Below, piece by piece: positions 7,158 through 57,185 of a stretch of DNA of 64,000 nucleotides (position 1 is its first letter; every line of letters begins with the position of its first letter). The stretch is taken from positions 1,426,001-1,490,000 of the forward strand of contig OZ024758.1 of the NCBI GenBank assembly GCA_964016885.1, read 5' to 3'. The notes beneath the pieces are model-generated. The model was not told the origin of the DNA, searched no databases, and saw only the letters and a list, made by a program, of their open reading frames with translations. The translations under genes and the position numbers were made by a program. This DNA is from Eledone cirrhosa. Taxonomy: Eukaryota.

Positions 7158-7277
<120 letters not shown>

Positions 7278-13325: not shown

Positions 13326-13369
<44 letters not shown>

Positions 13370-13500
13370 GAAATAGCGATATATATATGAATGTATGAAT
13401 GTATATATAGTGTATTTTGCAAAACACTGTATGCTTAATTAAAAGCATTTCGAAGACTTTACGCTATTGTTTTAGAGTAGTGACAGTTTCACTTGCTTTA

Positions 13501-13595
13501 ATTTTCAGCAAACAGGGGAGATGAAGCTGACAGAGCTCTGTTTCGCACTTTTTGGTGCTTATCAAAGCTAACTACTCCGCCTGTTTGCTGAAAAT
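13501..13595 (-). ncRNA. Type I hammerhead ribozyme with U3:A8 core variant and extended stem I
   Basis: Minus strand: ATTTTCAGCAAACAGG c GGAG tagtt AGCT-UUGAUAA-GCAC caaaaa GUGC-GAAAC AGAGCUCU GUC^-AGCT tcat CTCC CCTGTTTGCTGAAAAT; stems I, II and III all pair. Confidence 0.75.
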
Positions 13596-14376
13596 CATGA
13601 ATGTTTGATTCTTATAGAATTCTAGTGATAATCAGGAATTATACAGAGCGGTTGCCGGTCAAGCAGAAATTGAAACATTTTATTTAGGGGGGGGGGGGCT
13701 TTTGTCGTATTTCTTTATGTGTTGCGCAAATATCAGGAATATTTCTTCAATAATTCTACTGATGAGGTGAAGGTGCTACCAATTTAGGACAACACCACTA
13801 CTTACTCAGATAATCAACAGCATACCAGACATTATAGTAAAATATGGTGCGATAACCTGTAACTTAATGTTATATCAATCATCTAACCAATGTAGGCAGG
13901 TGTTATTATAAGTCTGTAAATACCAATAGATATATCTGAAGAAATTCTCGCGGTAACACACGAGAATATATGAGAGGAAACAATAAAAGGACAAATAAGT
14001 CCAACAACAAATAAAAAAATGTCTCGATTTACAAATGAAAACTTATGTTTCATAATTTAACTTTTACAAATATTCTCTCTCAACATGTATTCAATAGTAC
14101 TGGAGCCACGCCATGGGAGGTTTCAATTAAACCAATGAAATATATCAAGCAAATATTGACAAAATTACACAAAACAAACAAAGCCTGGTATTACCCGGCA
14201 AAACAGGTACTACAAGGACTAAACCCACGCCACCACCACCACCACCAATGCTCCTCCCAATATGAAATGCTCTACTCGTATCATAGCGCCAGTCTATATA
14301 TAAATATGCACATTTGTTTAAATACGTAGACATATAAACATGCCAGAAAATACCTGTAAATTGAAGGAAATGATAA

Positions 14377-14425
14377 ACACCTTTAATTGATATTCGGACC
14401 TTGTTGTGTCCTCGTCAGAAGGTGT
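14377..14425 (-). ncRNA. Degenerate type I hammerhead ribozyme (A15.1->U)
   Basis: Minus: ACACCUU-CUGACGA-GGAC acaacaag GUCC-GAAU A ucaa U UA^-AAGGUGU; perfect 7-bp stem I and 4-bp stem II. Confidence 0.6.
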
Positions 14426-14689
14426 GTACATAGCCTAAACAAACACACATAAACAGGTATTTGATGGGCTTATATATATGTGTGATTGAGTACAGCAGTT
14501 GCACATCGCGATGCATGGTGCAGGGAAGAAACCACGTGTGTCGTTGGTCCGTAATTTTATGGTGTTCCCGTATAACATCGTTTTTTACGACTAACCAACT
14601 CATTGTGTGAGCTCTGATATACAGACTTGTACCTGGAAAATACATGTTCTGTAACGATGCATACGTAATATATGCAAATTACATTGAAG

Positions 14690-15416: not shown

Positions 15417-15604
15417 AAAAAATAATCAAAGAAGCCTTCAATACATCAAAAGTCTTTATTAGCCAACAATGTTTCGTCCCATTAATAAGGACTCATCAGG
15501 GCAAGAAAATCTTTTCTTGCCCTGATGAGTCCTTATTAATGGGACGAAACATTGTTGGCTAATAAAGACTTTTGATGTATTGAAGGCTTCTTTGATTATT
15601 TTTT
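15417..15604. ncRNA. Perfect 93-bp-arm palindrome carrying a minimal type I hammerhead on each strand (Penelope-like pseudo-LTR end)
   Basis: Arms 15417-15509 / 15512-15604, 2-nt spacer. Plus-strand HHR: GCC-CUGAUGA(15522)-GUCC uuauuaaug GGAC-GAAAC AUU GUU^-GGC, then AATAAA; (TA)n follows. Confidence 0.75.
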
Positions 15605-36838: not shown

Positions 36839-37020
36839 CGTGATTTCTTTTCTTTGTCTTCAAGTAAGAAATTCATCTGAGTAAGAATCAAAAATCAAAA
36901 CCACCGACAACCCTAACAAACTTCTTATAACATTGAATAAAAGCTTTCCAAAATCACATGTTATGAGGTTTTATAACGGAGTCAACAATAGTTAAATAAG
37001 AAATAAGAGGATTTACAAAC

Positions 37021-37247
37021 TTCAAGAGAATATTGACAGAGCACATTACTTTCCACTCTGTTCTACATTCAGGACAAGTTGTCATGCGATACCTGGCGTA
37101 CCATCTTGCTATACACAATCGGCAAAAGGTATGTCCGCAGGTCAATGTAACTGGGGTATCCAGTAGACCCATGCAACAATGACACCGCAGAGAATCCACC
37201 TTTACTATCGCTAACATAGCATGATCGTCTTGGTCGGCCGATGACAT
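37021..37247 (-). CDS. BFAR: First coding exon of a C3HC4 RING E3 ligase, BFAR (bifunctional apoptosis regulator)-like
   Basis: CHCCMGLLDTPVTLTCGHTFCRLCIARWY...TTCPECRTEWK...VNILL closely follows the recalled BFAR RING (CHCCYDILVNPTTLNCGHSFCRHCLALWW...CPECREKW...VSILL). Acceptor ttttttccctccccag| just before the ATG (exon starts 37252); phase-2 donor AA|GTTTGT at 37020. The symbol rests on recalled similarity. Confidence 0.72.
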
Positions 37248-37557
37248 CTTCGCTGGGGAGGGAAAAAAAGTAATCAATTTAATAAATAATTTTGTGAAAA
37301 GAGAAGAAAACGGACAAAGAAATTAAAGAATAAAAAGGGAAATAAATAATTTTCTATCTTAACTATAATAAAGTAAGGAGTGCGGGACTGTGTCCAGAAT
37401 ATTTTTTTTACCCCCTTTGTAAAATAAGTGGGATTACTTTGAATAAATAATGAACGAATATTACATAATTTATCTACTAAATTTCGTTATTCTTCATTAA
37501 ATATAAATAATGTTGTCGCTTATTTTAAGATTCACTTTAAAATTTTCAAATGTCAAC

Positions 37558-41300: not shown

Positions 41301-41429
41301 GATATATGTGTTCAAGAATTGGGTTTACGAATGATCTCCGACCAAAACACTTGACAAACAAGTGCAACTCCTAAACTTATATGCATTTGTTTATATCACT
41401 CCCGCTCTGGTATCTCTCAAGTCTCAGCC

Positions 41430-42550
41430 CGTGTTGACCACCCGAGTTATCTCACTGTCTCTGTGATATACCTCTAGTCTCCGTGTTTATCACCTCGGTT
41501 ATCGCACTGTCTCTTTGATATACCTCTCGTCTCACACCATGTTTATCACCCGAGTTATCTCACTGTCTCTGTGATATACCTCTAGTCTCCGTGTTTATCA
41601 CCTCGGTTATCTCACTGTCTCTTTGATATACCTCTCGTCTCACACCATGTTTATCACCCGAGTTATCTCACTGTCTCTTTGATATACCTCTAGTCTCACA
41701 CCATGTTTATCACCCGAGTTATCTCACTGTCTCTGTGATATACCTCTAGTCTCACACCATGTTTATCACCCGAGTTATCTCACTGTCTCTGTGATATACC
41801 TCTAGTCTCACACCATGTTTATCACCCGAGTTATCTCACTGTCTCTGTGATATACCTCTAGTCTCAAACCGTGTTGACCACCCGAGTTATCTCACTGTCT
41901 CTGTGATATACCTCTAGTCTCCGTGTTTATCACCTCGGTTATCTCACTGTCTCTTTGATATACCTCTAGTCTCACACCATGTTTATCACCAGAGTTATCT
42001 CACTGTCTCTGTGATATACCTCTAGTCTCCGTGTTTATCACCCGAGTTATCTCACTGTCTCTTTGATATACCTCTAGTCTCCGTGTTTATCACCTCGGTT
42101 ATCTCACTGTCTCTTTGATATACCTCTAGTCTCACACCATGTTTATCACCAGAGTTATCTCACTGTCTCTGTGATATACCTCTAGTCTCCGTGTTTATCA
42201 CCCGAGTTATCTCACTGTCTCTTTGATATACCTCTAGTCTCCGTGTTTATCACCTCGGTTATCTCACTGTCTCTTTGATATACCTCTAGTCTCACACCAT
42301 GTTTATCACCAGAGTTATCTCACTGTCTCTGTGATATACCTCTAGTCTCCGTGTTTATCACCCGAGTTATCTCACTGTCTCTTTGATATACCTCTAGTCT
42401 CCGTGTTTATCACCTCGGTTATCTCACTGTCTCTTTGATATACTTCTAGTCTCACACCATGTTTATCACCCGAGTTATCTCACTGTCTCTTTGATATACT
42501 TCTAGTCTCACACCATGTTTATCACCTCAGTTATCTCACTGTCTCCCTGA
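41430..42550. repeat. Minisatellite of 52/56-bp units (~20 copies) with a 160-bp higher-order repeat
   Basis: Unit cacccgagttatctcactgtctctgtgatatacctctagtctc(acac)c(a/g)tgtttat; variant ccagag recurs at 41991, 42151 and 42311. Confidence 0.92.
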
Positions 42551-43146
42551 TACACTGGCAGCATATTAGTCGTCTCAACCCGCCATGCCGCTAATCCAGT
42601 AATGAGAGAGGGAGGCTTGTTGACCCGCGCAGTTTTATTAGGATTCAACTTCAGTGTAACTTAAGACAGGAGTCGAAATTCTTTGCACAACAAACGAACA
42701 TTTTATACTGTTCTTTACATGTCCTCTCTCACTTATTGTATTGTGGCTGTATGCCTTGTTAAATGTATTTACATACATACACATTTACGTGTGCATGTAT
42801 GCTTGTATATATGTTTTTTTTTCAGAATTACCTTTTCTAGAAAGGTGTTGTGACAACAACTGAGGTCTTTCACTCCCAAGTTAGAATTGAGGGGGAAAAA
42901 AGTACTCTTTGGATCAATTTGCGTAGGAGTGCAAGTCTCTAGGATGCTTGAAAAGCCATATCCGAGTGTCACACATCTGAATCTGACAAGCGATTACAAT
43001 ACTCTTAGCAGAGTTTGCAGCCATCATATACATATGTATATATACACATTTATGGGTGTATATCATGTGTGTGATCCAATTATCCCTTACTTTTTCAAAT
43101 ACGGTGATTTGTATAATCTTGTAAAACAAATGTATATATGATATAA

Positions 43147-50500: not shown

Positions 50501-51603
50501 ATATAGCAAACATTCACATTATAATTTAACAAATGCAACGTGGGATGGAGAGAAGAATATAAAAGTCTAAGATAACCAAGGGAAGATGAAGCATTACAAC
50601 ATATGTTGAAATTAAAGTGAAATGTAATCAATAAAATCTAGAAAAGGCATCATAAAATAACCAATAGAATCTTGAAGCGAATGAGTTGAGTTTAGTTTGC
50701 TCTTTTCTATCTCTTTTCATGTTTAACTTTAATTGCTTATCTCTTATTTAATTTTGTGAACCAGATTAGATTTTCATATCTGGACGACTTTATGTCAAAG
50801 TTCTTATTGGCAGAATTACGTAGTATGTTGATAGAAATTAGATATTTTGTTCCTATATAGAAATAACTTATCCTAACGATATTATAGGATCGTAAAAAGA
50901 AAACTAAGTATCTAAGGAATTATAAAAGCTATTTGTCAAATAATAATATTGTTTAAATTGAATTATTAAATAATTAAAATCAACGATTTATATTAATTTG
51001 AGGACTTATTTCCAAGAGAGAAATTTCAAATTAAATATTATACTCTGAAATGTCGGCTTCAGCTTGGCTTCAGAATTTCACAAAAACGTAATCACAGTGA
51101 AAAAAAAATGAAATGTCTCTATGGGCATTTTTTCCGGATCATAATATAACTGGTATTTTGGAATATAGTTTATTACATATTTTACCTTAATAAACGAAGA
51201 TATATATGCTTTTTTTTTTTTTTTTTTTTTGCTTTTTTTTTTTTGCTTTTTTTCAATAAAAAATCCGCCGTTGAAAGGAAAACAGGAGAGCTAATGAGAG
51301 CATTTCTGCAAAAAAGCCTCGTAATATTTCATATCGCAGGTAATTTAATTATTACTTATATAGACAATATATTGTAAGTATTCTTAATGTGTTGTATGTA
51401 TACTGATACAAAAAATAGTTATCATCTCAATGAACCTTGAGAACCAAACAAGATTTCGATTCCCTAAATACAGTAATTCACAAGCGCATAATTTCACTGG
51501 CATATTTTTAATATTTAAACATTTGGCTGGACTATTGGAAAGAAAAAAAAATATTTCTTTCCCTTTTTTAATTTACTTTTTCTTCTTCCCACTCATGTTT
51601 CTT

Positions 51604-53714
51604 ATATATATGATATATATATAATATGATATATATATATATATATTATATATAATATGATATATATATATATATATTATATATAATATGATATATATAA
51701 TATGATATATATATATATATATATTATATATAATCTGGTATATATATAATATGATATATATATATATTATATATAATATGATATATATATATATTATATA
51801 TAATATGATATATATATATATTATATATAATATGATATATATATATATTATATATAATATGATATATATATATATTATATATAATATGATATATATATAT
51901 ATATATAATATGATATATATATATATATATAATATGATATATATATAATATGATATATATATATATATATATTATATATGTATATATATATTATATATAA
52001 TATGAGTACTTTGGTGCGTTATGGCCTATCTGGTTCCTTACCACATTTCCTCCGTTATTATATATAATATATGTATATGTATATGTATATGTATATATAT
52101 ATGTATATATATAATATATGTATATATATAATATATGTATATATATATATGTATATATATAATATATGTATATATATATATGTATATATATAATATATGT
52201 GTATATATATATATGTGTATATATAATATATGTATATATATAATATATGTATATATATAATATATGTATATATATAATATATGTATATATATATAATATA
52301 TGTATATATAATATATGTATATATATGTATATATATGTATATATAATATATGTATATTGTATATGTATATATATATATTGTATATGTATAAATATATTGT
52401 ATATAATATATATATATTGTATATAATATATATATATTGTATATATAATATATATATATTGTATATATAATATATATATATTGTATATATAATATATATA
52501 TATTGTATATATAATATATATATATTGTATATATAATATATATATATTGTATATATAATATATATATATTGTATATATAATATATATATATTATATATAT
52601 AATATATATAATATATATAATATATATATATTATATATATAATATATATATATTATATATATAATATATATATATTATATATATATATTATATAATATAT
52701 ATATATATTATATATATATATTATATATATTATATATATATATTATATATATAATATATATATATATATATTATATATATATATTATATATTATATTATA
52801 TATATATATATTATATATAATATATATATATTATATATATATATTATATATATATATTATATATATTATATATATATATTATATATATATATTATATATT
52901 ATATTATATATATATATTATATTATATATATATATATTATATATAATATATATATATTATATATATATATTATATATATATATTATATATATATATTATA
53001 TATATATATATTATATATTATATATTATATATATATATTATATATATATATATTATATATAATATATATATATTATATATATATATTATATATAATATAT
53101 ATATATTATATATATATATATAATATATTATATATAATATATTATATATTATATATAATATATTATATATAATATATTATATATAATATATTATATATAA
53201 TATATTATATATAATATATTATATATAATATATTATATATAATATATAATATATTATATATTATATATAATATATTATATATAATATATAATATATTATA
53301 TATAATATATAATGTAAATATATATTATATATAATATATAATGTAAATATATATTATATATAATATATAATGTAAATATATATTATATATATATATTATA
53401 TATAATATATATATATTATATATAATGTAAATATATATTATATATAATATATTATATATAATATATTATATATAATAAATAATGTAAATATATATATATA
53501 TTATATAATATAATATATATGATATATATATATATATATATATAAATTATATGCAATATGATATATATATTATATATAATATAACATATATGATATATAT
53601 ATATATATATTATATATAATATAACATATATGATATATATATATATATATATTATATATAATATAACATATATGATATATATATATATATATATTATATA
53701 ATATAATATATATG

Positions 53715-53748
<34 letters not shown>

Positions 53749-55262
53749 ATATAACATATATGATATATATATATATATATTATATATAATATAACATATA
53801 TGATATATATATATATATATTATATATAATATAACATATATGATATATATATATATATATTATATATAATATAACATATATGATATATATATATATATAT
53901 TATATATAATATAACATATATGATATATATATATATATATATAATATAACATATATGATATATATATATATATATATATTATATATAATATAACATATAT
54001 GATATATATATATATTATATATAATATAACATATATGATATATATATATATATATTATATGCAATATAATATATATATATGTAAATATATATATATTATA
54101 TATAATATAATATATTATATATATATATGATAACATATATGATATATATATATATATATTATATGCAATATAATATATATATATGTATATATAATATAAT
54201 ATATATATATGATATATATATATATATATTATATGCAATATAATATATATATATGTATATATAATATAATATATATATATGTAAATATATATATATTATA
54301 TGCAATATAATATATATATATGTATATATAATATAATATATATATATGTAAATATATATATATTATATGAAATATAATATATATATATGTATATATAATA
54401 TAATATATATATGTAAATATATATATATTATATGCAATATAATATATATATGTATATATAATATATATGTAAATATATATATATTATATGCAATATAATA
54501 TATATATATGTAAATATATATATACATCATATGCAATATAATATAGATATATGTAAATATATATATACATCATATGCAATATAATATATATATGTAAACA
54601 TATATATATATCATATACAATATAATATATATATATATGTAAATATATATATACATCATATGCAATATAATATATATATGTAAATATATATATACATCAT
54701 ATGCAATATAATATATATATGTAAACATATATATATATCATATACAATATAATATATATATATGTAAATATATATTATATATAATATATATATATATGTC
54801 AATATATATATTATATATATATTATATATATAATATTTATATGTAAATATATATATGTATATATATTATATATAATATAATATTTATATGTAAATATATA
54901 CATGTATATATGTTATTTTTATATGTAAATATATACATGTATATATGTTATATATAATATATATATATATGTAAATATATACATGTATATATGTTATATA
55001 TAATATATATATATATGTAAATATATACATGCATATATGTTATATATAATATAATATATATATCTATATATATTATATATAATATAATATATATGTAAAT
55101 ATATATATGTATATATGTTATATATAATATATATATATATGTAAATATATACATGCATATATGTTATATATAATATAATATATATATCTATATATATTAT
55201 ATATAATATAATATATATGTAAATATATATATGTATATACGTTATATATAATATATATATAC
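51604..55262. repeat. 3.6-kb (TA)n-derived complex satellite
   Basis: Almost pure A/T with successive sub-arrays (e.g. tattgtatatataa, ataacatatatg, atgcaatataa, gtaaatatata); single 50-bp unique island at 52004-52055. Confidence 0.95.
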
Positions 55263-55591
55263 ATACACCGGAAAAATCATGACCTCCCATTACGTTTACC
55301 CGGCATAAAAGGTAGAATATATCATTACAAAATGTATAATAAAAATATACCGATGCACCAATGATAAATGTTAAATGATATGCCATAATGAACATTTCCC
55401 AGCATTTTATTAAACAACGATAGACAGACAAATGGTTCCAATACCCACTTATAACATAAAGAGGAATGGTGACAAGATCTCCGTCTGCTATTATTTCACT
55501 ATTTGGAATTTGTTTCGAAAAATGATTTTTCTTTTTCTCATACCATGTTCATTAAATTTCAAATAAAGAAAATATATCCAACCCAGCCCTT

Positions 55592-56920
55592 TCAAATAGT
55601 GTGGCACATTTTCATGAGTTTCGTCCTTCTTGTGAAGGTAACATTTCCGTCTGATTGGCGATTAGTCTTCAATGAAGCACAGGAAGTTGCACCACTTGCA
55701 TATTGTATCTTCCCATAGAGGCGAGTCAACAACCGTAAATTGTAATTGCCATCCCTGTGGCGGTGACCCTCGAAGTTTCCAGCCTTTGTTGTTTGATGAA
55801 GAGCTAGGACGGTGTCAGACACGTCTATCAAAGTCTGTTTCTTTTTGATAGCATTTATTACTAGCCAATTGTCGTATGCTCTTCGACCAATGACTACGTC
55901 CGGTATAGCTTTCCAAGGATAACTATATGACGTAATGAAATAGTCTTCAGCATTTCGTAGAAAGGGTTTTCCGCGCCTTTTAGCAGTGCTCTTCATAACA
56001 CTCCAGGTAATAACTTCATGGGGCATGACATTTAATACGTTAGTCCGGATTCCGATCATTAATAAAGGTTTAGTGAGATCTTGGGTTTTGGCCGTTGCCC
56101 AAAGTGTTTTTAAAAGATTATCATCGTATAAAATGTCTGCATTTGAATAAGCATAAAATAATGTTCGAAATTTAGACATAACGTCTACATACATATCTTT
56201 CAGAACCGGTGCACCACCAGCGGCAATACGCCTAATTGGTAATGCTGTCCATCCGTCAGATTCACACTGTTTATTTAGATATTCATCGCCACTGAAGACA
56301 ATTGGTGATGGAACAAAAGGTATTAATTTTTTCCAATTTTTCACTGTATTATTGTAGGCTATGAATTTTGCTTTCATAACTTTCCATGTTGTAAAAAGTG
56401 TTAGCAAAGGTAAAGTTTTATTTAAACTTAACAATGTGCGATATTCTTCAAAGGAAGATATATTTTTTATGTCAATTAATGAATTTAGTGTACTAGAATT
56501 TGCTGGTACTTGAGTTGCATTCTGTCTAGTGGAGGATATGGTAGATTTGATGGCATCTTTTGTACCTGGACGTACTTTTGCTTCGTTAGAAGATTCACTA
56601 GGCGCTTGATATTTTAATCTAGCTGATACTGATGTGCCGTTATTACTCAAAGAATAGTTAGAAGTAGTTGATGGTGTCATCATGTACCGCAACAATGTAG
56701 CGTTATTCTCCAAGTTTGGTTTAAAGACGTTATTATAAACATGTGGAGTAAACGGTGAGTTTTTATTTATAGCATGTATAATAGACTGGAACAGGTGAGG
56801 GTGACCGAACACGGAGTTGACATTTTGATACAAATAGAAGTAAATTGTAACCAAACACATGAACGAAACTGCTATCTTCCAATTGAAAATTCGTTTGTTC
56901 AAGCATCGACAAAATGCCAT
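55592..56920 (-). CDS. Uncharacterised type II membrane glycosyltransferase-like (GT-A fold-like) protein, 442 aa, intronless CDS
   Basis: Only long, non-repetitive ORF. Likely true ATG at 56920 (MAFCRCLNKR); the track start at 56980 is TTG. Short basic tail, TM helix (IAVSFMCLVTIYFYLY), Ser/Thr/Asn-rich stem with many N-X-S/T sites, then a globular domain with LLTLFTTW, YAYSNADIL (DxD-like), IGIRTNV, EDYFI, VVIGRRAYDNWLV, IDVSDTVLALHQ. Upstream splice acceptor (tccttttag|G, exon starts 57091); AATAAA at 55411-55406. Confidence 0.88.
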   Translation of the reverse strand: MAFCRCLNKRIFNWKIAVSFMCLVTIYFYLYQNVNSVFGHPHLFQSIIHAINKNSPFTPHVYNNVFKPNLENNATLLRYMMTPSTTSNYSLSNNGTSVSARLKYQAPSESSNEAKVRPGTKDAIKSTISSTRQNATQVPANSSTLNSLIDIKNISSFEEYRTLLSLNKTLPLLTLFTTWKVMKAKFIAYNNTVKNWKKLIPFVPSPIVFSGDEYLNKQCESDGWTALPIRRIAAGGAPVLKDMYVDVMSKFRTLFYAYSNADILYDDNLLKTLWATAKTQDLTKPLLMIGIRTNVLNVMPHEVITWSVMKSTAKRRGKPFLRNAEDYFITSYSYPWKAIPDVVIGRRAYDNWLVINAIKKKQTLIDVSDTVLALHQTTKAGNFEGHRHRDGNYNLRLLTRLYGKIQYASGATSCASLKTNRQSDGNVTFTRRTKLMKMCHTI

Positions 56921-57185
56921 CTTGAAAGACGCAAAATGTCTAAATGTTATTGCCTTGTAAAGGCAATACAAAGGATCCAATCAAGCAGTCCGACTATCCT
57001 CGAATTGTGTAAACAGATGTAAAGAATTAGTAGATGACAGCCCTTTATTTGCGTTTTGGCCAAAGTTAGATGAGATCGTTACCCAATCAACCTAAAAGGA
57101 TGAATAAGAAAAATAAATATTAATAGTGTATGAAGACAAACAATTTATAAAAAGGCACTGTTGGAGAAGATACTAGTTAATAACA

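Follow-up and report, generated by a model that had tools for sequence, protein, structure and literature searches.

The hammerhead motif on the minus strand of the window, a 64,000-nucleotide stretch of Eledone cirrhosa DNA, very probably belongs to a non-autonomous retrozyme family of about two thousand copies (about 1,900 or more core-bearing units). The whole account that we favor, and that is on balance probable, is that of a retrozyme with a U3:A8 core, for which a Penelope-like reverse transcriptase is the likely mover and which is predicted to be cut as a dimer and blocked as a monomer. What is new is a retrozyme family that is dominated by U3:A8 and has a sister with the canonical core, whose insertions clearly bear the signature of Penelope, and for which a monomer-off/dimer-on switch is predicted. 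The natural U3:A8 hammerhead is already published: PMC3088659 reports such ribozymes and cites in vitro activity, and PMC4209133 describes about 1,300 U3:A8 minimal hammerhead motifs in Schistosoma Penelope-like elements (Cercyon). No description of a U3:A8 retrozyme family or of a retrozyme tail was found in the open-access literature, and the supplements of PMC7229834 and of a 2026 preprint (Li et al., 10.64898/2026.07.22.740005) could list the family.

The sequence, the coordinates and every helix claimed in an earlier sequence-only reading of this DNA were all located on the minus strand (Table 1). Between the distal and the proximal part of stem I, the window motif has a C bulge at 13579, 4 bp and a 5x4 internal loop, followed by the proximal 4 bp; beyond stem II come GAAA, stem III and the GUC triplet. 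The assignment to type I was borne out by the helices and the core, with three helices, an open-ended stem I, G5, A6, A9, G12, A13, A14, the A15.1-U16.1 pair and an NUH triplet. Around the predicted cleavage site, G16.2, U16.1 and C17 are conserved in 209, 213 and 212 of 217 copies, respectively. In the same 217 copies, the second pair of stem II is C-G in 143, U-A in 68 and something else in 6. Three to four pairs of distal stem I show compensatory changes between subfamilies. The C at 13523 in loop 1 is private to few copies (the family base is U in 210/217). The motif is not a product of chance, since the fold of the window 95-mer has a z-score of -9.1, mostly due to the long stem I (none of 200 shuffles was equally stable), and since reversed control patterns gave no match in 3.0 Gb, against 167 and 1744 for the real patterns.

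Table 1. Features of the window, and retrozyme junctions at other loci (L numbers)
Feature	Position	Strand	Remarks
(TA)n microsatellite, likely insertion target	13328-13368		adjoins the element at its 3' end
Solitary retrozyme copy, 307 bp	13369-13675	minus	covers 236-319 followed by 1-219 of the circularly permuted 319-bp unit, with a single hammerhead
Type I hammerhead motif	13501-13595	minus	unit positions 1-95; covariation across subfamilies
Distal stem I, 16 bp: 3' arm	13501-13516	minus	5' arm 13595-13580
Predicted scissile bond after C17 (13529) of GUC	13528-13529	minus	hammerhead consensus
Helix III and loop 3 (A15.1 to U16.1)	13530-13541	minus	perfect 12-nt palindrome
Predicted rival 7-bp helix, monomer	13534-13569	minus	13569-13563 with 13540-13534
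Stem II of 4 bp with its 6-nt loop 2	13545-13558	minus	second pair covaries C-G / U-A between subfamilies
Core strand U3-U4-G5-A6-U7-A8-A9	13559-13565	minus	U3 = 13565, A8 = 13560
RING-finger (C3HC4) exon	36957-37322	minus	only coding exon recognised (61/123 candidate frames scanned)
Retrozyme-PLE junctions	L084:1248, L257:1513, L152:1380		L084 and L257 head-to-head, where an element's own inverted copy normally sits

Standard annotation would overlook this motif, as a check against Rfam confirmed: the best match, Hammerhead_HH9, reached 24.1 bits and thus stayed below the gathering score of 52. The low score is not due to U3:A8 alone, because a copy of the C3:G8 sister also fell below the threshold of Hammerhead_1 (14 bits of 34). 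The vertebrate intronic HH9 hammerheads (RF02275) have a similar type I topology, stem II and loop 2. The geometry for a putative loop 1-loop 2 docking resembles that model; the loop bases differ among subfamilies. In contrast to HH9, a conserved single-copy intronic element, the motif here is part of a mobile repeat.

The ribozyme is embedded in a unit of about 319 bp with 35% GC and a longest ATG-started frame of 44 codons. Natural tandem units are spaced 310-320 bp apart, inverted arrays also occur, and the window copy matches a natural tandem unit at 92.9% over 311 columns. Genome-wide, the 95-mer gave 1081 candidate matches (40 scored), and a 38-mer from outside the ribozyme gave 700 exact matches. 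The unit thus has the genomic traits of metazoan non-LTR retrozymes (Cervera and De la Pena 2020, PMC7229834; 2026 preprint), namely a low-GC (<50%), non-coding tandem unit of 150-450 bp with one type I hammerhead each and many dispersed genomic copies, and the retrozyme class suggested earlier holds. The published families have thousands of dispersed copies, coexist with Penelope-like elements (PLEs) and are known from the mussel, a mollusc. The Eledone family differs from them in its dominant U3:A8 core and in the insertion anatomy seen here (two starts, a one-sided tail, an inverted arm and (TA)n). Some arrays depart from the standard arrangement: L108:1002-1604 holds about four repeats of a 163-nt ribozyme-free piece of the unit, L036:9-1015 is a diverged array with a period of about 310 nt, and L126 is a long array that fills its locus.

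The U3:A8 core is the rule in this family, not a private variant of the window copy. Exact core matches in the 3.0 Gb genome (1796 contigs; stem II allowed in either of two forms) numbered 1744 for U3:A8, 106 for C3:G8, 17 for U3:G8 and 15 for C3:A8. The 1882 matches are spread over many contigs and 93% of them are U3:A8; nearly all have a Watson-Crick 3:8 pair, the mismatches being the latter 17 and 15. A search for the canonical CUGANGA core would, as predicted, recover only about 6% of the family. The view of U3:A8 as a compensatory change was upheld, since both bases occur together in 1744 of the 1776 cores that carry either, and since a C3:G8 sister subfamily exists; independent random decay at the two positions, the refutation proposed in the sequence-only reading, is ruled out by this co-occurrence. 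If the positions were independent, one would expect 7.9 C3:G8 cores instead of the observed 106, which nevertheless represent one evolutionary event. The C3:G8 copies share the entire unit with the U3:A8 copies (about 85-88% identity) and form one clade with support 100/99 in an unrooted tree of 80 of the 167 rows. Mismatched 3:8 cores are scattered over all backgrounds, as expected of mutations after insertion, and none of the amplified subfamilies is mismatched at 3:8. A divergent subfamily has U3:A8 in 79/84 copies. In four sequencing runs of unrecorded library kind from one study, the unit was a high-copy repeat with no variant of at least 5% at positions 3 or 8. One small run (X4, of unrecorded kind) gave a single 126-nt contig at a depth of about 400 over window positions 13476-13594, that is, over the ribozyme; in the three large runs, depth is lowest where this contig lies.

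The retrozyme units fall into at least five subfamilies. Across 163 copies from five of them, U4, G5, A6, A9, G10.1, C11.1, G12-C15.2 and the GUC triplet are invariant, and N7, loops and bulges are variable. Comparison of subfamilies shows both bases replaced in seven pairs, 3:8 among them, and a shift to G-U in three; the C3:G8 group loses one terminal pair. In 35 sampled copies, 96.2% of the cells were paired, with 38 doubly changed cells versus 10.8 after shuffling; the number of pairs changed on both sides (6) was not above that in shuffles (equalled in 334/500). These covariation measures are inflated by the relatedness of the copies, and each change amounts to about one event. Base pairs and the 3:8 contact were preserved by double changes between subfamilies, and we infer from this that the source RNAs were selected for catalysis. 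As far as sequence comparison can tell, the hammerhead is quite likely to be catalytic in these source RNAs. Its structure could also persist for other reasons, since cleavage was dispensable for Penelope in vitro (PMC11167929).

The single motif is not predicted to adopt the hammerhead fold. The sequence-only reading had called it fully foldable, but the minimum-energy structure of the 95-mer is a different one, with a rival 7-bp helix that arises because loop 3 duplicates the 3' strand of proximal stem I. In energy-model folding, with or without flanks, this helix has pair probabilities of 0.97-0.99; it abolishes stem III and proximal stem I and sequesters U3-U4-G5. Relative to the best structure, the hammerhead structure is 3.5 kcal/mol less stable, and relative to the ensemble 3.8 kcal/mol (37 C) or 4.6 kcal/mol (15 C). 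The models omit Mg2+ and the docking of loop 1 on loop 2, two contributions that could offset 3-4 kcal/mol. The median gap to the active fold in monomers is 3.2-6.2 kcal/mol in the U3:A8 subfamilies and 1.6 in C3:G8, where loop 3 differs and the rival helix is weaker; pairing of U4 and G5 is also predicted in this canonical subfamily (median 0.85). Circular monomers with an intact palindrome are predicted to be blocked as well.

The prediction is different for two copies. The active secondary structure, not favored in the single motif, is favored in the dimer: for the homodimer of the window 95-mer, unconstrained folding gives precisely a double hammerhead as the minimum, at -96.5 kcal/mol versus -87.0 for two blocked monomers. 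A double hammerhead was also the minimum for 52/57 copies of subfamily A, 14/20 of B, 9/18 of C, 5/14 of D and 9/12 of C3:G8. The 12-nt palindrome is the commonest form in subfamilies A (58/79), B (18/25) and C (8/20), and in subfamily D just two bases separate the helix III strands in 5/14 copies. Among the 11 natural tandem pairs, 4 had both dimer helices at probabilities above 0.9, 3 were partial and 4 had none; three of the latter 4 carry mutated palindromes. The models slightly favor dimer gating, in which the monomer would block itself and tandem transcripts would be cut in the form of a double hammerhead. By the same models, it is doubtful that the 95-mer on its own works efficiently as a monomer. 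Given the predicted rival fold, a cleavage assay with the 95-mer could be negative or concentration-dependent for reasons other than U3:A8.

The most serious competitor would place the motif in the same retrozyme family as an ordinary monomeric hammerhead, in which loop docking outweighs the rival helix and U3:A8 just slows the reaction. This picture is consistent with the full 4-pair helix III, with an internal loop of 5x4 placed 4 bp away from the core, with a loop 2 that agrees with the HH9 consensus loop, and with the cleavage as monomers of the invertebrate retrozyme hammerheads tested so far (0.8 and 0.1 per min, PMC7229834); an energy model without tertiary terms leaves room for it. We nevertheless consider it the less probable reading. 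The blocking helix is strongly predicted in its sequence context too, as it is in circular monomers whose palindrome is intact, the differing loop 3 of the C3:G8 sister weakens precisely this helix, and the two-base spacing of helix III in subfamily D suits a dimer better.

Dimer gating has partial precedents. Newt and axolotl satellites and the minimal hammerheads of PLEs likewise have a palindromic helix III that enables a double hammerhead (PMC7229834, PMC4209133), but there the dimer is needed because helix III is too short, whereas here helix III is normal and the predicted lock is formed by loop 3 with the core. A PLE minimal hammerhead has no helix III, or one pair only, and no loop 1, which does not describe the present motif. 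The 3:8 change itself is the one seen by Perreault et al. (2011; PMC3088659) and, at high copy in a Penelope-related repeat, in Schistosoma Cercyon (PMC4209133). What sets the Eledone ribozyme apart from the published U3:A8 motifs is its full-size type I architecture, which includes helix III and loop 1, and a C3:G8 sister of about 87% identity in the same genome. Most metazoan retrozyme circles are predicted to leave the ribozyme free to fold (PMC7229834), unlike the monomer here, which is predicted to be self-blocked.

Genomic copies commonly extend across the predicted cut. Read-through at the first cleavage site is seen in each of the 70 arms that extend that far, and 11/84 pass two (loci picked by a site downstream of the ribozyme); 18/453 arms contain at least two full units. 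The template was therefore likely a circle or an uncut multimer, as a cleaved linear monomer would yield only copies of 142-170 nt. Junctions at the cut site (unit 66-68) had been predicted beforehand. Among 45 matches, 13 were removed as internal indels and 32 were called by eye; 11 of these 32 fell at the cut site versus 21% expected (p = 0.06), and a comparable pile of 5 at position 59 follows the same four letters as the cut-site pile. Stopping at the cleavage site is rare, not absent. We had considered a run-off restricted to the second pass, with 5' ends stopping at the cut only on the second turn (at first 5/30 versus 0/70), and rejected it when 9/11 such ends were on the first pass genome-wide. 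As a separate observation, 16/211 5' junctions lie at unit 76-84, in the 3' arm of stem I, versus 6 expected; some of them are ambiguous, as the stem arms are mirror images.

Such read-through, together with ends that do not clearly pile up at the cut, would also be seen if the U3:A8 hammerhead were dead or nearly dead, kept as a structural handle, and the family had spread from uncut tandem transcripts. Two published results point the same way: the Penelope element needed no cleavage in vitro (PMC11167929), and only one of nine frog retrozyme dimers cleaved (Li et al. 2026 preprint). We regard a dead hammerhead as unlikely. Across five subfamilies, the catalytic positions and the triplet stayed invariant while loops, N7 and stems varied. 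An active tertiary fold accounts for the double change at 3:8, and the amplified subfamilies are free of mismatches there.

The retrozyme insertions have the anatomy of Penelope insertions. Among 256 mapped ribozyme-sense segments, 214 end at unit 200-211 or 233-240, which defines two fixed end sites (unit ~209 and 235-238) about 26-29 nt apart. A TA run follows within 20 nt in 183 of these 214 arms. The 253 loci contain 153 head-to-head pairs; in 103 of them both outer ends are at the two sites, and 93 of the 103 use one of each, against 50% expected. The same asymmetry was found in loci that were fetched later (33/35 pairs). The first end site falls in an AT run of the unit itself, and base pairing between this run and the target may therefore aid priming.

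Ends at two sites, an inverted 5'-truncated copy and microsatellite targets are all Penelope traits. The Penelope protein nicks AT-rich DNA and begins reverse transcription inside its RNA at two adjacent sites, which define a genomic tail of 30-40 bp; uncut RNA is the main template, and ribozyme cleavage is dispensable for insertion in vitro (PMC11167929). An inverted truncated copy, a one-sided tail and (TA)n targets were reported for Penelope-like elements in PMC8557442. As here, these endonuclease PLEs show two internal starts about 30 nt apart, a tail at one end, an inverted copy and AT-rich or (TA)n targets; unlike them, the Eledone unit has no ORF, and it has no known match to an autonomous pLTR (one family compared). 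Mobilization by Penelope has been proposed in PMC7229834 and in the 2026 preprint, the accessible parts of which do not contain this footprint. With considerable confidence, we attribute the mobilization of the Eledone family to a Penelope-like enzyme.

Direct junctions between retrozymes and PLEs are suggestive of the same link. At four loci (L066, L084, L152, L257) the retrozyme is joined directly to a 5'-truncated Penelope-like ORF. Each ORF piece comes from another PLE family and meets the unit at another position, two of the four in head-to-head orientation, and no continuation of the ORF was seen on the other side of the junctions where this was checked. As four families are involved and PLE pieces lie near 26/253 loci, common (TA)n targets may explain the junctions. 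The family joined at L084 has no pLTR sequence in common with the unit, judging by 20 loci read of 1958 candidates. A further locus, L091:5640-7370, holds a 5'-truncated element with one stop and one frameshift that abuts a retrozyme array; it has a minimal hammerhead-like motif near 7225-7270 and a terminal TA run. Pfam named none of its ORF pieces, which we take to be Penelope-like by their RT and GIY-YIG-type motifs.

In principle, a young autonomous Penelope-like element that mostly leaves truncated ends could have this unit as its pseudo-LTR, a reading close to the 'young PLE end' considered in the sequence-only reading. The tail, the inversion, the (TA)n targeting and the four ORF junctions would all suit such an element. 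This is very unlikely, because the unit continues into itself: in the two sets of 146 and 253 mapped loci, copies run head-to-tail into unit sequence, with no shared ORF or body beyond the unit. An RT and GIY-YIG ORF between pseudo-LTRs was not found in these loci, a subset of those in the genome, and the ORF pieces that do adjoin the unit belong to different families and are joined in various ways.

The window copy is an ordinary member of its family. Compared with the column majorities of its subfamily, it has 6 substitutions in 254 sites (2.4%; family median 2.6%) and a 4-nt deletion. No convincing target-site duplication was seen at this copy, whose ends lie in (TA)n. Ribozymes decay like their flanks, both in the window copy (1 change in 73 ribozyme sites versus 5 in 181 elsewhere, p = 0.68) and family-wide (3.2% divergence versus 2.9% in the rest), which marks the genomic copies as neutral. 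Domestication of the window copy as a self-cleaving control of a host transcript, a further suggestion of the earlier reading, has an intact core, intact stems and a RING-finger exon 23 kb upstream on the same strand in its favor but is extremely improbable given a divergence like that of its siblings, the lack of excess conservation in the ribozyme, intact cores in as many as 58/88 unbiased copies, and a single hammerhead that is predicted to be blocked.

The window as a whole has a GC content of about one third and is rich in microsatellites. Homologue searches gave no further exons of the RING-finger gene. A single open frame of 462 codons (55592-56980, minus strand) has a likely N-terminal membrane segment and no Pfam match at E 0.01; a 56-bp minisatellite of about 21 copies lies at 41416-42552 and a degenerate TA array of 3.7 kb at 51603-55265. 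Two other places resemble hammerheads. A perfect inverted repeat at 15417-15604 (93-bp arms separated by 2 nt) has two hammerhead cores of the canonical C3:G8 type, one at 15522 on the plus strand and one at 15499 on the minus strand (Rfam Hammerhead_3, 23.9 bits), and relatives in L096/L097, L185 and L297, and is likely the palindromic stump of another Penelope-type element. A third motif, at 14370-14450 on the minus strand, has a canonical 3:8 core, a 4-bp stem II and an altered GAAA strand, with 73% matches in L201 and L284; it probably derives from an older repeat whose minimal hammerhead has decayed.

Together, these observations point to the following probable cycle. In a tandem transcript, the palindromic helices III of two units would pair and form two active cores, and unit-length RNA would be released, as the folding models predict. 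By analogy with other retrozymes, a host ligase may then circularize this RNA. In a single unit, loop 3 is predicted to invade the core, so that the circle would not be cut again. A GIY-YIG Penelope-like enzyme would nick a (TA)n target, start reverse transcription inside the RNA at the two sites and copy through the cleavage site, with a circle or an uncut multimer as template. The window copy would be a single-hammerhead, neutrally decaying product of this cycle. A more far-reaching proposal, which we put forward tentatively, is a built-in switch: the same four bases of loop 3 would lock the lone ribozyme and complete the 12-bp palindrome that activates only the tandem form. U3:A8 and the lock would stabilize the circular RNA, which may have let the U3:A8 subfamilies outnumber the C3:G8 sister by about 16 to 1, and the insertions would show directly, at the level of the genome, that retrozyme circles are copied by Penelope enzymes that start at two internal sites.

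These results bear on how animal retrozymes move. Earlier papers, in their accessible parts, argue for the mover from co-occurrence and sequence likeness; the Eledone family shows a mechanistic footprint. They also bear on how retrozyme circles escape re-cutting, for which PMC7229834 invokes an unknown block; the models here predict a self-pairing lock that would be released in the dimer. With about 87% identity, the U3:A8 and C3:G8 sisters form a matched pair for measuring the cost of the core change. The window copy itself is ordinary, and it is the family that offers a useful test system.
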